Assembly (NCBI RefSeq): GCF_006345805.1
Contig: NC_043023.1
Location: 8,866,001-8,930,000 of the forward strand
Direction of reading: 5' to 3'
Source: Octopus sinensis
Lineage: Eukaryota
DNA: 64,000 nucleotides
Positions 15,607-22,594 of the stretch are shown here, one piece after another. How positions within the stretch are numbered: the first letter of the stretch is position 1; every line of letters begins with the position of its first letter. The position numbers are program-made.

Positions 15607-16220
15607 ATACAAATCACTGATGTAAACAACAAATTTTCATATTCGTAAACACTTTCACATTTGCAAATTCATAAGTGGAGAAAATCTGAGTTAGAGAAGG
15701 GCAGGTTTAAGAAGTAAAAACATAGGAAAGCATTAAATATTTAGAAATATATCAAGTGAAGAGTATCAGCAAAACATATTCAACTTACAACCCCCTTATG
15801 TTGGAAAGATTCTTGAATGTTCCTTGCTCAATAGTCGATATACTGTTATTCTGTAGAAACCTATAAGATAAAAGAGAACTCATAAGAAATAACATAAAAG
15901 AGACCAGTTACAATAATTTTTACTATGATATCTGAGGGATGACAGACAGGAAGATAAGAAAAGGAAGTCGAAGTTTTAGAATTCGATGACGGATGTCACG
16001 ATAATGATGTGTGAAGAACATGATTATAAAGGTGATGGTGAGTGATGACGAAGATTGATGATAATAACGATAACGCTGTTAATTATACACTGGTTGGTAT
16101 TGGTGACACTGTTGGTTGCTGAGCTGAGGATGCTGAGTATGATGATGATGTATCAGGTAAAATCTCATAAGAGAGAAGGGGATGAGAGGAAGGAATGATG
16201 ATGCAATATATTTCCTTTAA

Positions 16221-16253
<33 letters not shown>

Positions 16254-16334
16254 TATATACACGTAAGTATATATGCGTATATATATATATATATATATTA
16301 TTATATATATATATATTTATATATATATATAAAT

Positions 16335-16390
<56 letters not shown>

Positions 16391-16925: not shown

Positions 16926-18072
16926 GCATATATATGTATGTATGTAAGTACATATGTATGTAACTACATATTTATGTTTGCGTCTTTGTTATTAAATACG
17001 TATGTTTTCTTCGATTACAAGATGTTCAGTTTGAAATACAAGTATTATACATGTGTGTTTATGTATAAATATGTGTATATATACTATGTATTGCATGTAT
17101 GAGTGTATATATATTTCTACCTTTAAGACTTTATTTATATATATTTCCAGGACCCGTTAATTTTTCACGGAAGTAATTTTAAGCCTATGCAATAATTTTT
17201 GAAATCTTTATTTATAAAATCGAAAGTGTAGACTGCGTTGTGTCTGCATGGAGAGATAGTTGCTCGTCTGCTATTCATTGGAAAACAAACGAGACTGTAA
17301 TAAGAAGATTACTTAATGAACTTTATATGGGCACTTAATATATTTTACCTACAATTTTACGGATATAATACAGAATACTCATAAAATGAACAGTCACCCT
17401 TTTTTTTCCATATTTTGCTGTAAACAATAAACAAAAATAAACATCTCATACATATGATACAACATTTCGTAAAATTGTAAAAATTTGCCACGTCAATAAG
17501 CGTGAAAACTTTACGGGATTTCATTTATGCGCATGCGTTATGAGAGAGAGACACGTTGTATAAAACTTATTTCAATTGAAAAGCATGCACGCTTTTCACT
17601 ATCCAATGCAACCACCACTACCTCCACCACTTCCACCAACACAATCGTCATCAACTCTCTTCCTGTCCCTCTCTCCTCTCCTTCGACTCTGTCTATCTCC
17701 CTTCCTTCTTTGCCTAAGTTTACCTTCACCATCAGAACATTACATCTCTGCTAAAGTTATCCTTTCAACTCTCCTCTCCGTACAACTAACTTTTAACCAC
17801 GTTACTAAATATTACGTTGCCCTTATCTTATATCGTGGACGAAATTCCCTCTCCCTTTTACCTTCTCCCTCTTTTTCTTTGTCCCTTTTCTCTCTCTCTC
17901 TCTCTCTCTCTCTTTCTATCTATCTATCTATCTATCTATCTCTATCTCTTCACCTTATCCTCTTTCCTGTTTCCTTTTCCATTCGCTTCAACTACTCACG
18001 TGCAATTACATTCCCTCTGCCACACGTCCTGGATGCTCTTCTCTCCCTATTTTCCTTCCTCCCTCATTTTAA

Positions 18073-18111
<39 letters not shown>

Positions 18112-21100
18112 TGTGTACAGTGCTCAGGTGCACTACAACTCATCTAAAGTGTATGTATAATCAGGTGTGGTTTCGGCGGATTTCGGAGAGCATGAGGGCC
18201 TTAAGGGATGCAGTGTCATGGCAGTCAACGACTGACGCAGGCAGTTTATTCCATGCTTCAGCAACTCTCCCCTTTCTTTCTCTCTCTTTCTCTCTAATTA
18301 CATGAAAACGTTGCCGACACGCTAGGTAATGACATGAACAATTTTTTGGTTAATTTTGCAAATTTACTCCTGTTCCAATGCAAAACTATAAATATCCTGA
18401 TTTTGAAGAAGGATAAATTACATTACTTCTTGGACGTTCTAGGAAATGAATGTGGTCAACATTAATAAACTTTAATATTATAAATTCATTTGGATTCAAA
18501 TTAACATTTATATTTATTTTTATGCAGTGTATATTCCATGTGGTGTTGAAATAAGCATTATTAATGAATTAAATGTGATCAATTCTCAGTAAGGAAGAAT
18601 ATCACAAACACATTCATATAGAAAACGGGGATATATTAAAGTACACAAGTGAAGAATTTTTATATATGTGCATGAATCTGGGTATATATATATGTGTGTG
18701 AATGTATATACATAAGTATGTTTGTGTATATAGGTATGTGTGTGAGTGTATGTGTGTTTGTGTGAACGTGTGTGTACATATATGTGTATATATTTATATT
18801 TGTGTGTATGTTTTTGTAAATTATGCAATCACGTATGTTTGCGTTTATATATGTTTCTAAGTTCCCTTTCAGTCGTTTTTTCGCCGCCATTCCCTGAAGG
18901 TGGGTCTAGTTGGCTCCCAAATAGGTGTTCACATCCTTCAGAAATGCTGACCGCATCCGATGGTCAGCCGCAATCGAAGCTATAATGGATATACACTCAC
19001 AATTTAAACGCCCAAGTCTATAGACACAATGGACCGATCGAACTTCTATGTTCGCCATTACCCATCATTGGCGCATTGTGTATATGTGTATAAAAATATA
19101 TATATATATATTGGATATACTTTGCATGTTTATATGTGCAAGGAAGGTCAGATCCATCTTTGATAAACTGATTCCTAGTGAACATATTTCAAAACTTAAG
19201 TTGAAGTATTACTTAGGCAAGAAAGGTTAGGCAACAAAGTGTTTTCTTAACCTATAGAAAAGGTAATGAAGTCTGGGAAGACGGTGTAATAATTAAACAA
19301 ATAAGGAGAATGGTATTCCTGGTAAAAGGAGAACATGTCGAACATAAAAGCCATTAACAAACGGAAAGAAAGTTTCACGAAAATAAAAAAAGTAGCCACG
19401 AGAAATAACACCCTCATGGAAATATTGCATAAAATCTTTGAGGTACAAACATCAAAGCAATTTGAATCTAGACGTTCTTGAACCAGACAACGGATAATAA
19501 ATGAACCATTGGGATTGAACCCTAAGGGTAATCGATATTTAATATCAGAGCGGAGATCAATTCTCAAATGGGCAGAATATAGGGGAGACTGATGCAAAAA
19601 GGGGACATATCATGGAAGGATTCCGACCACCCCACAAGTGACATAAATGTGGACTGACTTATTGATATAAATTAAAGCACTGAGCGATTAGCGTTTCGTG
19701 TTCCTAGCAGTTCAAGTGAGCTTTGATATGGAGCGTTGAGTCTCGTATAATAGTAATAGTAGTACGTTGCGTATATAGTTTCCTCCCCACCCCCACCCAG
19801 TGCTTAATCAATACAAGGATATACAAATAACCAAGTGGTAATCGCAAGCCTTAGTGTACAATTTGCCATATCAGGTCATCCTGGCAATTTTAAGTCCGGC
19901 ATTTACCAATAACGCATTCTTCAGGGTGACATTTGGCAGCTCTTCTTATAAGAGATTCTGATATCCACAGTGAAGATGAGTCATCGGATTCCTATGAAAA
20001 TAGATGAGATCAAAGGTACAGGAGAGTCAGCTTGACTATATGGAAATCGCTGGAATGCCTCGTTGCCTGAGTAACGACACACTGCATACAACACACACGT
20101 TGAAGTGTTTCATCAACCACCTGAGAAAATAAGAGGTTTTGCGCGATGGGATGCTTTTAATTTATCGAGCCTCCTGCTATCCTAAACTCCTTGAGACGAC
20201 TGGAAGATCACAAAACGTCTTAAGGAGTTGATGGCATGGGCTCACATGAGTCACAAGGACACCAAATCAAAATAGGTAGTCTTAGATGCAGGTACTGCTT
20301 CCCAGTCAGTAGTGTTCATTTACAATCCATAACCTAGAAGAGAGTGAAAATTCTGGGAAAAGAGTTTTTAATGTAACCGGGGTGACATATAATCCATCAG
20401 TGAAGCCAAGGAATCAGAAACTTGGTGCATGCCACCAAAGTGACAATGGGGTAAAATGTATAAAGCCCAGTATACTCATCATGAATACTCGTCTGATAAG
20501 GGTACACTAGGCAAATCTGTGGTATTGAGCAGAATATATTTTCCAACCACCGAAATCTTTCGTTTGATACAAGGCCTTCCAGGAATTTCCAGATTTATAT
20601 CACTGCGTATCTTTCTCACATTCATTCTACAGAGAAGAGTTTTCAATCTGTTGCGAACGACAGTACGTAAAGGAGTTGGTGACAGAAATGTCTCCTTTGA
20701 AACAACGCACGGTCGTCCCTAAGAAAATAAGAAAACCAGATATGTGGTATAAAAGAATATGAGTGCCAGTAAAGAATAAGGAGAAAAACACAACCGTTCT
20801 ACTGCTTGAGAGAAAGAAAGACTTTATTTACAGGATGTGTACATAGTGATAAGAGCGTGTGTGAGTGCTAGCAGAGTGTAGTGTCTGAGTGTGTGCACAT
20901 GTGTCTGTGTGTCCGTTGTAAGTTAAAAGAGTGAAACAACAATACAAAGCAAAGAAAGAATGTCCAGACACAAGATGGAGAATAAATACCAGTTCGTACA
21001 GGTACACAATAGCAGTTCGCTCTGTGTCAATGAAGTTGGGGCAAAGAGGAGAGCAGTTGGTATGCGTGTAGAAGTTGGGCGTCGATCCATTTGCCAGGTT

Positions 21101-22594
21101 ACATCGGTACAGAAGGTCTTGCCGGTCGTGCTGTGCTGTTAACCTTGGTGTGATTACACAAACAGCGTGTGAGCTAAACTCAAGCGAGTTGCTGTGTACG
21201 TACCGTTGAAGTCGACGGTGGTGATGGCGACGGTAGAGAACGGTGACGTTGAGATGAAGGCGACGGTGGTGGACACGCCCTGCATTGCTGGTGTATGTTG
21301 GCGTCGTCGCTGTCTGGAGCGGGAACATGGCTGGGTCGCTGGCTGTAGCAGGAACATGGCTGGGTCGCTGGAACTAGCTGGTCTGGTCGTCGATAGAACT
21401 GGCTTCTCTGGTGTGGTCAATGGTCAGAGACCAAAGACCCAGATTCACTGGATCACTGGGATTTTATAACATACTAGAGGCTCAAGAAGAAAACCCAAAA
21501 GACAGAGCCACATGATCTTATTGGAAGGTTCTGATTGGTTGGTTCACATATTGGCGCAAAATAAGTCAACAGACAAACTGTGCCAATGCCAACCAATCAG
21601 AGCAGTGGACACAACAGAGTCAAAATAGCGGCCAAAACTTATCTGTTATCTGCTACGACATAATTTGTACTGCATATCTCAGAGAGTGCGGATGCATTTC
21701 ACAAAACGCTATAACTCTTTCAGTCTTTCCCAGTAGCCAGTATGTTTCCTTGATGCAATTTCGTTTGTGTAGCTTCGTTGGATTGCTTCGAGTTTCGCCG
21801 TTATTTTAATATTTATGTTGGTATAGTTGGGAGAGGTAGTTCAAACGTCTGAGAACGTATGCTCTCCAGATGACCACATTGAGAAATATATACACACACA
21901 AACACACACACACACATACACACACATAATACAAATCACTGATGTAAACAACAAATTTTCATATTCGTAAACACTTTCACATTTGCAAATTCATAAGTGG
22001 AGAAAATCTGAGTTAGAGAAGGGCAAGTTCAAGAAGTAAAAACATAGGAAAGCATTAAATATTTAGAAATATATCAAGTGAAGAGTATCAGCAAAACATA
22101 TTCAACTTACAAATACTCTAAGCCGGAAAGATTCCTGAATGTTCCTTGCTCAATAGTCGAGATTTTGTTATTCCCTAGCTTCCTGTTAGATAAAAGAGAA
22201 CTCATAAGAAATAACATAAAAGAGACCCGTTACAATATTTTTTACTATTATATCTGAGGGATGACAGGCAGGAAGATAAGAAAAGGAAGTCGAAGTTTTA
22301 GAATTCGATGACGGATGTCACGATAATGATGTGTGAAGAACATGATTATAAAGGTGATGGTGAGTGATGACGAAGATTGATGATAGTAACGATAACGCTG
22401 TTAATTATACACTGGTTGGTATTGGTGATACTGTTGGTTGCTGAGCTGAGGATGTTGCGACTGTGGAGTATGATGATGATGTATCAGGTAAAATCTCATA
22501 AGAAGTGAGGGAGATGAGAAGAAGGAATGATGATGCAATATATAGATATATGTATGTGTTTTTATATATATATATATATATATATACGTAAGTA

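Follow-up and report, generated by a model that had tools for sequence, protein, structure and literature searches.

In plant LRR resistance proteins and in the VLRs of lampreys, the hypervariable residues occupy the xxLxLxx positions of the repeat. Diversity in the VLRs is produced by somatic assembly from cassettes that lack splice sites. The LRRs of plant R-genes usually lie within large exons, without a contrast between exon and intron comparable to the one described below. To our knowledge, there is no report of paralogous exon hyperdivergence in conserved LGR4-type or NLR genes. Both belong to the animal genes for which exon-modular LRR domains are described (PMC6642158).

In the LRR-ROCO genes of the brown alga Ectocarpus, a single 72-nt exon encodes each 24-residue LRR, and the repetitive exon structure is described together with exon duplication and shuffling and with inactivated LRR exons that lack splice sites and lie within introns (PMC3341825). 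The same source reports positive selection, mainly on terminal branches and at residues of the concave face, which is the binding face of the LRR, as well as 19 ROCO loci with inactivated LRRs on their non-coding strand (PMC3341825). A second precedent is ASSET, described for snake three-finger toxin genes, in which segments of exons are radically changed between conserved introns by a mechanism that the source gives as unknown (PMC2474615).

The locus presented here lies in a window of 64,000 nt, the whole stretch of DNA that was analysed, and consists of 13 or more LRR modules arrayed on the minus strand (Table 1). Each module measures 72 nt, has the same codon phase at its start and its end, and is bordered by AG and GT, with a polypyrimidine tract and AG on one side and a GTAAG donor on the other. 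Read as 1 nt + 23 codons + 2 nt, B1, B2 and B3 give open 23-residue peptides, and the Leu codon at the junction between neighbouring LRR exons is split into TT and G/A. As 72 is a multiple of 3, joint inclusion of modules stays in frame. Usable AG and GT/GC signals are present in nine of the 13 modules, and the other four (A0p, A2p, C0p and D') are inactivated. These losses, together with the His at the core Leu of C3, indicate that part of the array is decaying.

One LRR per 72-nt, same-phase exon and the presence of inactivated copies are features shared with the Ectocarpus LRR-ROCO genes. Here, however, all 13 modules are on one strand: a profile search of the whole window in six frames gave 13 minus-strand matches, and the best plus-strand match reached 9.7 bits (E = 0.089). 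No non-LRR coding exon or domain, ROC-COR included, was recognised in the window, which looks metazoan from its GC content (~36%) and from a CR1-like LINE with a ctenophore protein as its best named relative (46% identity). When ten long open frames were scanned against Pfam, two matched, both to retroelement domains, and no annotated protein for the locus was found in the protein collection searched. LGR4-type receptors and NLRs likewise have one repeat per exon in the same phase, so that exons can be gained, lost or skipped without a change of frame. The equal length (72 nt) and phase of the tandem exons also recall a Dscam-like mutually exclusive cluster.

The consensus LxxLxLxxNxL...F..L, with a 24-residue period, is visible across the 13 modules and corresponds to the 'typical' extracellular LRR type. 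All eight exon peptides tested matched Pfam LRR_8 (E = 8.9e-5 to 0.025), with scores below the gathering score of 27 bits because each peptide is a single repeat. The best matches among solved structures (PDB) are extracellular 24-residue LRR proteins, and the exon peptides align repeat by repeat with a designed consensus LRR protein. One exon peptide alone matches repeats of LGR4, IGFALS, LRRC15, LRIG1, decorin and Slit at E = 1e-7 to 1e-3; single 23-residue repeats of this kind cannot decide family membership.

Table 1. LRR exons, inactivated modules and duplicated units, in window coordinates
Feature	Positions	Strand	Description
Exon A1	5718..5789	-	Intact
Exon A3	58126..58197	-	GC donor
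A0p	4444..4515	-	A-type, inactivated; acceptor AG lost
A2p	9591..9662	-	A-type, inactivated; 3'-end deletion took the donor (10 gap columns in the alignment)
Exon B1	13534..13605	-	Older paralogue of B2/B3
Exon B2	15789..15860	-	Paralogue of B3; tag before and gtaag after the exon; 12 of the 17 differences derived here
Exon B3	22111..22182	-	One 24-residue LRR, 72 nt; cag before and gtaag after the exon; Pfam LRR_8 E = 1e-4, under the gathering score
Duplicated unit with B2	14239..17663	-	Blocks outside microsatellites 1.2-4.7% diverged from the B3 unit
Duplicated unit with B3	20562..23639	-	Counterpart of the B2 unit
C0p	29626..29697	-	C-type; 5' end one base short (71 nt after AG), thus frame-shifted
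Exon C1	48344..48415	-	Intact
Exon C2	54807..54878	-	Intact
Exon C3	34169..34240	-	Splice sites intact; core Leu replaced by His
Exon D	11488..11559	-	Splice sites intact
D'	59936..59970	-	3' 35 nt of a D-type exon plus donor; 5' part non-homologous, adjoins a LINE fragment; inactivated

The central observation concerns exons B2 and B3. In an ungapped comparison at offset 6322, they differ at 17 of 72 nt, against 2 of 128 nt in the donor-side intron and 6 of 130 nt in the acceptor-side intron. The initial annotation had given these counts (the last as about 6), along with nearly all changes being non-synonymous and an unchanged STIEQGTF run, and all of this was recovered: the central run is the same in both exons, one difference is plainly synonymous (ATA/ATC) and Nei-Gojobori averaging gives Sd 1.5 and Nd 15.5. 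The higher divergence of the exon also holds against a longer alignment. In the aligned block of 1956 ungapped columns, 49 of 1884 non-exon columns differ (2.6%) and the exon is the most divergent 72-column window, with 17 mismatches against 7 in the runner-up among non-overlapping windows. With 300 nt of intron sampled on each side of the exon, a Fisher test of 17/72 against 11/582 gives p = 6.8e-11. The edge of the exon is sharp, and the first 80 nt of the donor-side intron contain no difference.

Within the exon, dN/dS is 3.4, which alone is not significant (Fisher p = 0.18, with only ~15 synonymous sites). Against the intron as neutral rate, however, dN/K(intron) is 13.7 (binomial p = 3.6e-13), and it is this use of the intron as a yardstick that makes the excess significant; the part of the Ectocarpus study drawn on here uses no such yardstick (PMC3341825). 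The excess over the intron rate cannot be attributed to relaxed constraint. An exon that evolves faster than its intron requires positive selection or some input other than point mutation, and to that extent the initial annotation, which proposed strong positive selection or a targeted diversification mechanism, is borne out. There is no sign of a targeted mechanism, as the splice sites are ordinary, a deaminase signature is lacking and the A family shows no excess.

The changes cluster, as had been noticed by hand, at the x positions of LxxLxLxxN. Five of the eight residues replaced between B2 and B3 are at positions 2, 3, 5, 7 and 10, and 21 of 38 minimum amino-acid changes within families fall on the five xxLxLxx x-codons of 23 (binomial p = 6.8e-6). 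Five independent pairs taken together give a pN of 0.45 at the six contact codons and of 0.07 at framework codons, where pS is 0.08. Framework codons in recent pairs have a pN/pS of 0.84, so that the remainder of the exon shows no evident purifying selection over so short a time. The hydrophobic core, the reading frame and the AG/GT splice signals are kept, and when 17 random changes were simulated, the core residues and the open frame survived in only 3.3% of simulations. Variable residues at the beta-strand x positions, with framework Leu/Asn retained, are shared with plant LRR proteins and VLRs. Unlike in VLRs, the modules are spliceable germline exons. Somatic cassette assembly of the VLR kind is ruled against by the AG/GTAAG splice sites and by the spectrum of changes (C>T 0/17).

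Diversifying selection on a recognition surface, that is, germline adaptive diversification of ligand-contact residues after exon duplication, best explains the excess in rate, where the changes fall and the framework that was retained, and we assign it a probability of about 0.45. These three features are observed, whereas the role of selection as their cause, the expression of the gene and its action as a receptor are inferred. Under this explanation, the window would hold part of a metazoan minus-strand gene whose LRR domain is built from one 72-nt exon per repeat. A unit of 3.1-3.4 kb with one LRR exon would have been duplicated recently, and both copies would then have been rewritten, B2 far more than B3, at about eight codons located at both ends of the exon. 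These codons and the adjacent exon would jointly encode the solvent-exposed beta-strand on the concave face. The rewriting would have spared the splice sites, the reading frame and the LRR core.

The direction of the changes was read using B1 as outgroup. This exon differs from B3 at 5 positions and from B2 at 12 and has no changes of its own, which makes it an exact intermediate and the apparent ancestral state of the pair. Its introns are 10-13% diverged, B1 being the older paralogue, and pairs that include B1 show no excess of exon over intron. At a per-branch neutral rate of 1.3%, the 12 changes on the B2 branch (p = 1.7e-10) and the 5 on the B3 branch (p = 0.0025) are both in excess. If B1 represents the ancestor, then both daughters changed after the recent duplication. 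The absence of change in B1 itself, despite its diverged introns, would mean that constraint came first and that the burst followed duplication.

This polarity bears on the proposal that the exons split long ago and that their introns were homogenised by interlocus gene conversion, with selection rejecting those tracts that would erase the exon difference. Such islands of divergence are an established model for tandem paralogues (PMC3924837, PMC3728101, 10.1101/2025.10.29.685298), and saturated contact codons would suit an old split. B1 as an exact intermediate is, however, a better fit to a recent two-sided burst, and the exon centre is identical. In addition, the expected shoulder of divergence is absent beside the exon, as is an older stratum in the five blocks of the units, all of which are 1.2-4.7% diverged over 3.1-3.4 kb. 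An old split is very unlikely.

Two similar units would also result from an assembly artefact, if haplotypes of one locus had been placed in tandem and the exon difference were a balanced allelic polymorphism. The divergence of ~2.6% in the flanks lies within the heterozygosity range of many marine invertebrates, and balanced polymorphism with recombination typically produces sharp peaks at selected exons. However, the units are told apart by a 215-nt palindromic insertion and by microsatellite lengths, the outside sequences are non-collinear and differ beyond the units, and the window, which contains no N gaps, holds no second copy of the 2.9 kb spacer (17664-20561). The same effect is also seen in D/D' and C-family pairs, whose members lie 4.5 to 48 kb apart, and an artefact of this kind is highly improbable.

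In D/D', 7 of 35 exon nt differ versus 7 of 300 nt in the donor-side intron (p = 1.5e-4). In the C family, exon divergence is 2.3-4.0 times that of the intron in all six pairs (p = 0.011 to 1.5e-5), and the exon does not stand out as the one most divergent 72-nt window of its unit. An excess over the intron was also sought in the A family and was not found, as A1 and A3 differ at 4/72 in the exon versus 46/558 in the intron. Within families, identity is 75% over exon nt 1-12, 63% over nt 57-72, 91-97% in the centre and 83-95% in flanking intron segments.

An extreme local excess with sharp edges is what an enzymatic mutator targeted to these exons would produce, whether deaminase-like, through error-prone repair or as a somatic process captured in the assembly; this is the one feature in its favour. 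The 17 polarised changes of B2 and B3 are A>G 6, A>T 4, T>G 3, G>A 2, G>C 1 and C>A 1. A cytidine-deaminase signature sought among them was not seen, with C>T at 0 and G>A at 2 of 17, and the share of changes from A (10/17) is in line with an A content of 40%. Moreover, neither the exon centre nor the LRR core is affected, the excess is lacking in A-family exons of the same array and normal splice sites are present instead of recombination-type borders. We give a mutator hardly any credence.

The raw changes may have been serial point substitutions or short replaced patches. At the six contact codons, B2 and B3 differ at 12 of 18 nt, with 2-3 nt per codon and two codons changed at all three bases, which is near the expectation for random codons. 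Compared with introns at 2.6%, point substitution would need ~25-60 times the neutral rate. As these codons are near saturation, templated replacement of short patches stays a serious rival, and it fits the saturation at least as well. Here, short tracts would be copied into B2 and B3 from anciently diverged LRR exon paralogues elsewhere in the genome (micro-conversion or 'segment switching'), with selection only a filter. Donors would share only the exon core and splice-proximal bases, so that tracts would end at the exon edges.

Consistent with templated replacement, 9 of the 12 B2-branch changes are in runs of 2-3 adjacent bases, and differences spill over by 3 and 5 nt into the acceptor region, in which the families resemble one another. 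The synonymous change and a conservative framework change travel along (synonymous divergence of 1.5/15 versus 2.6% in the intron, p = 0.057), and the inactivated exons of the array could in principle be donors. The same picture is described for ASSET (PMC2474615), where short exon segments also differ radically between highly similar introns and the molecular surface is altered while the fold is kept; it differs in that a toxin is concerned rather than the fold and function of a repeat receptor, and in that the segments here are set by LRR beta-strand positions and exon ends. Against this, no k-mer of at least 11 nt with at least two B2- or B3-derived bases occurs elsewhere in the window, and 9-10-mers are at chance level. 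Neither end patch of B2 has a close counterpart among the other exons of the window (B1 comes nearest, at 7/25 and 5/27), and at least three separate patches on two branches would be required. Both the replacement and the ending of its tracts at exon edges are possible, if somewhat unlikely. It seems improbable that a metazoan recognition gene diversifies its LRR contact surface through a germline or even somatic conversion-like system, in which paralogous or inactivated LRR exons act as a library and short patches of them are copied into spliceable exons. Such copying would functionally parallel chicken Ig pseudogene conversion or lamprey VLR assembly, but on an array with one repeat per exon.

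Rapid receptor diversification is of a known kind and is seen here in unusually sharp form. If diversifying selection is the true reading, the recognition surface would have been rewritten while neutral DNA changed by only ~2-3%, a very clean natural example in which the intron is a built-in neutral clock and the third copy, B1, preserves the ancestral state. Because the exon edges are sharp and the contact codons saturated, whole-genome and population data would allow a direct test of whether point substitution or patch replacement was at work. The gene would then be a candidate immune, allorecognition or gamete-recognition receptor, and the one-LRR-per-exon shuffling design of brown algae would extend to animals.

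B2 and B3 are paralogous LRR exons on the minus strand, each of which is 72 nt long, with a pyrimidine tract and AG on its 5' side and GTAAG on its 3' side. Aligned at a fixed offset of 6322, they differ at 17 of 72 nt. The adjoining intron differs at 2 of 128 positions on the donor side and at 6 of 130 on the acceptor side, and all three counts reproduce those of the initial annotation, which had claimed that exon divergence far exceeds intron divergence here. In a MAFFT alignment of 14239-16200 with 20562-22530, the non-exon columns differ at 49/1884 (2.6%). A scan of the pair in windows of 72 columns, which had been proposed as a check, places the exon highest with 17 differences, and the runner-up among non-overlapping windows has 7. 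Compared with the flanking 300 nt of intron at either end, the exon is 12.5-fold more divergent (17/72 versus 11/582; Fisher p = 6.8e-11). Substitutions were analysed by counting methods. By the Nei-Gojobori method, Nd is 15.5 (54 sites) and Sd is 1.5 (15 sites), giving a dN/dS of 3.4 that lacks significance within the exon (p = 0.18). When the intron serves as the neutral yardstick, as the initial annotation had suggested, dN/K(intron) is 13.7 (binomial p = 3.6e-13). Eight residues are replaced, at LRR positions 5, 7, 10, 20, 24, 1, 2 and 3, and nine central codons are identical. The observation on this pair is correct, highly significant and wider than first reported.

The two exons lie in duplicated units, the B2 and B3 units, whose non-repeat blocks differ at 8/462, 20/499, 7/584, 14/330 and 34/720 positions (1.2-4.7%). 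There is no older stratum across these five blocks; one had appeared in the upstream part of the unit (87% BLAST identity), for which microsatellites and (TA)n tracts are responsible, the non-repeat part there being the block with 34/720. Beyond the units the flanks lack collinearity, and no copy of the intervening 2.9 kb exists elsewhere in the window, which speaks against two haplotypes of one locus assembled in tandem. The duplication is genuine, and it is recent. One could also suppose that the exon is an island of divergence left behind when the introns were homogenised by gene conversion. Under this model, divergence should be raised in shoulders around the exon and older strata should occur; neither is seen, and the model fares worse than adaptive diversification of ligand-contact residues after duplication.

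The third member of the family, B1, gives the changes a direction. Its introns are 10-13% diverged from the B2 and B3 copies, and its exon is exactly intermediate, with 5 differences to B3, 12 to B2 (5 + 12 = 17) and no changes of its own. On that reading, the exon would have stayed constant along a path on which neutral DNA shifted by about a tenth. After the duplication, 12 changes fall to B2 (p = 1.7e-10) and 5 to B3 (p = 0.0025), where the neutral expectation is about one per branch.

The units also differ in content. A near-perfect palindrome within a (TA)n tract has 81-nt arms that are 96% complementary, together with inner arms. Of the two units only the B2 unit has it, and so it appears to be a foldback or MITE-like insertion that postdates the duplication. 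The B2 and B3 units, but not the B1 unit, share a GC-richer stretch of some 1.1 kb that may be an unclassified insertion; the copy of its 181-codon open frame at 14505-15050 matched no family in Pfam.

The B exons belong to an array with three further exon families, A, C and D. A scan of the window for the full LxxLxLxxNxL motif gave nothing useful because the motif is split by exon junctions. Modules were located with the within-exon part of the motif and then with a profile built from the exons, which together yielded 13 LRR modules in the whole window, all on the minus strand (Table). Each exon reads as 1 nt + 23 codons + 2 nt, with a Leu codon split across the junction, being made of the final TT of one exon and the first base of the next. 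As all LRR exons share a common phase, in-frame gain, loss or skipping is possible. VLR-type cassettes were considered and rejected, the modules being spliceable exons. Four of the 13 modules are inactivated (A0p, A2p, C0p and D'), and the array is undergoing both exon gain and exon loss.

Table. LRR modules, duplicated segments and repeats, in window coordinates.
Feature	Position	Strand	Remarks
A0p	4515..4444	-	A family; inactivated, acceptor AG lost
A1	5789..5718	-	A family
A2p	9662..9591	-	A family; inactivated, 3' deletion took out donor
A3	58197..58126	-	A family; GC donor (58119-58125)
B1	13605..13534	-	B family
B2	15860..15789	-	B family
B3	22182..22111	-	B family
C0p	29697..29626	-	C family; inactivated, 5' end one base short
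C1	48415..48344	-	C family
C2	54878..54807	-	C family
C3	34240..34169	-	C family; splice sites intact
D	11559..11488	-	D family
D'	59970..59936 (module span 59936-60007)	-	D family; inactivated, only 3' 35 nt homologous; remainder adjoins LINE fragment
B2 unit	14239-17663		duplicated unit
B3 unit	20562-23639		duplicated unit
Palindrome	16380-16594		about 215 nt
GC-richer segment	14305-15390; 20628-21713		about 1.1 kb
181-codon open frame	14505-15050; 20828-21373	-	in both GC-richer copies
CR1-like LINE	1876-3104	-	frames 2730-3104 (RVT_1 domain) and 2010-2675 (longer)
CR1-like LINE	59989-61186	+	inverted relative to the other copy, about 90% identical
zf-RVT tail	63524-63997	+	separate, at window end
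Tandem intronic repeats	36860-54238		period about 7.1-7.5 kb
Repeat pair	36860-39723; 43978-46845		95.6% identity
Repeat pair	43216-45108; 50695-52588		95% identity
103-codon open frame	25387; 37516; 44634; 52117		four copies in tandem intronic repeats
Higher-order duplication	10127-11528; 58572-59977		89-95% identity
Higher-order duplication	4981-6514; 57355-58927		89-95% identity

Two modules are unusual in detail. The donor of A3 reads GCAAG rather than GTAAG, so that it is either part of a GC-AG intron or weakened, and C3 carries His (CAT) before the last turn, at a core Leu that is CTN in all other modules. All eight exon peptides tested matched Pfam LRR_8, with E-values between 8.9e-5 and 0.025; none reached the gathering score, as is expected when a peptide holds a single repeat. 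The solved structures matched by one exon peptide are designed consensus LRR proteins, LGR4, IGFALS, VLRs, LRRC15, LRIG1, decorin and Slit. These matches place the region in a gene with one LRR per exon, for which single repeats are not diagnostic among LGR-, Slit-, Toll- or LRR-only types. An N-x-S/T sequon on the convex side is conserved at codons 17-19 (Asn-Leu-Ser in B1, B2 and B3; Asn-Leu-Thr in D) and would fit a secreted or extracellular protein. No annotated protein matched at E <= 10 among five candidates, a result of little weight because the query, a 40-residue stop-to-stop frame with exon B2, was short. Across the full window, neither the Rfam scan nor the tRNA scan gave a hit.

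The window is AT-rich (GC about 28-43% in 2-kb windows), has no N, and is rich throughout in microsatellites and internal duplications. The window carries two inverted copies of a CR1-like LINE. Its reverse transcriptase has best matches that are 45-55% identical and mostly unnamed, the best named one being a Mnemiopsis leidyi protein (46%); for the longer frame, identity to unnamed reverse transcriptases reaches 55%. These matches indicate no more than that the window is animal-like and has no close named relative; it is not taken to be human. The truncated exon D' is adjoined by the upstream LINE copy. Several of the tandem intronic repeat units have no LRR exon, and one copy of their 103-codon frame matched no Pfam family. 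Searched likewise, 8 of 10 long open frames matched none. At both window ends, about 48 kb apart, a D exon is followed by an A exon about 1.8-1.9 kb downstream.

The excess of exon over intron divergence is general in the array, but it is not universal. For D and D', the exon differs at 7/35 and the donor-side intron at 7/300 (8.6-fold, p = 1.5e-4). The six pairs of the C family differ at 11-16 of 72 exon positions and at 5.6-7.7% in the introns (2.3- to 4.0-fold, p = 0.011 to 1.5e-5), and here the exon is among the most divergent windows, though not the top one. There is no excess among the A0p, A1 and A3 pairs (exon 4-6/72, intron 6.1-8.2%, 0.7- to 1.4-fold), nor for B1/B2 (12/72 versus 11.4%, 1.5-fold) or B1/B3 (5/72 versus 10.4%, 0.7-fold). 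The seven pairs of intact exons within families are 75% identical at exon nt 1-12, 63% at nt 57-72 and 91-97% in the centre; for the six intron segments that flank them, the range is 83-95%. When families are compared with one another, proximal introns prove to be conserved about as well as the exons: in an alignment of 12 units, invariant positions number 16/60 upstream, 20/72 in the exon and 7/40 downstream. Those upstream, common to all four families, include a TTTCT run and an AC...TT.TAT block, which probably represent branch-site and pyrimidine-tract signals that every duplicated unit brought along.

The x positions of the LRR motif xxLxLxx line the concave beta-sheet. PMC3341825 places the same positions there. 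With LRR positions taken from the consensus and from single-repeat alignment to solved structures, and changes counted as minimum amino-acid changes within each family, the five x codons (positions 2, 3, 5, 7 and 8, of 23 codons) take 21 of 38 changes (binomial p = 6.8e-6), a share that rises to 25 of 38 once position 10 is included. The clustering at x positions that was first described for B2/B3 holds. In five independent pairs, the six contact codons have a pN of 0.45, and the framework codons a pN of 0.07 and a pS of 0.08. The Asn and the hydrophobic core persist and the frame stays open; when 17 random changes are simulated, this happens in only 3.3% of runs.

Among described systems, the LRR-ROCO family of Ectocarpus comes closest. 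There, according to PMC3341825, one LRR is encoded per 72-nt exon, exons are shuffled, inactivated exons lie in introns, and positive selection acts on concave-face residues, mostly on terminal branches; a 2024 follow-up is PMC11378527. Unlike that family, the window has animal-like CR1-like LINE fragments with RVT_1 and zf-RVT domains, its modules are on one strand only, and no GTPase or other non-LRR domain was recognised in it. No description of this pattern in an animal LRR gene was found in the literature searched, although one may exist.

Loss of constraint cannot account for an exon that diverges faster than its introns; such divergence requires positive selection or else a mutational input other than ordinary point mutation. 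Selection would have acted on point mutations at the contact codons following duplication. It is favoured by how specifically the changes are positioned, by the retention of the framework, by the recurrence of the effect in three families, by a burst that follows on constraint, and by divergence edges that coincide with coding sequence. The initial annotation had offered a targeted mechanism as well, and an enzymatic mutator of this kind is not supported: the spectrum contains no C>T and two G>A changes, changes from A (10/17) match the 40% A content, and the A family is unaffected. Adenine-targeted and deaminase-type mutagenesis are rejected in view of this spectrum.

The extent of contact-codon change is extreme. 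Between B2 and B3, 12 of 18 nt in these codons differ, two codons at all three bases and several at two, and their divergence is about 25 times that of the intron uncorrected and about 60 times after multiple-hit correction. For this reason, short templated replacement, in which patches are copied from diverged paralogous exons, is retained as a strong rival to selection. A single step of this kind would account for the saturation, the runs of adjacent bases and the sharp edges, and the same exon-segment picture is described in snake three-finger toxin genes, where it is named ASSET and its mechanism is stated to be unknown (PMC2474615). However, no donor for the derived patches, which span exon nt 2-22 and 48-70 in B2 and nt 59-65 in B3, is present in the window. 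In substance, the results bear out diversification of the binding face, which may have come about by positive selection on point mutations or by patch replacement. The B2/B3 case has an unusually clean internal control.
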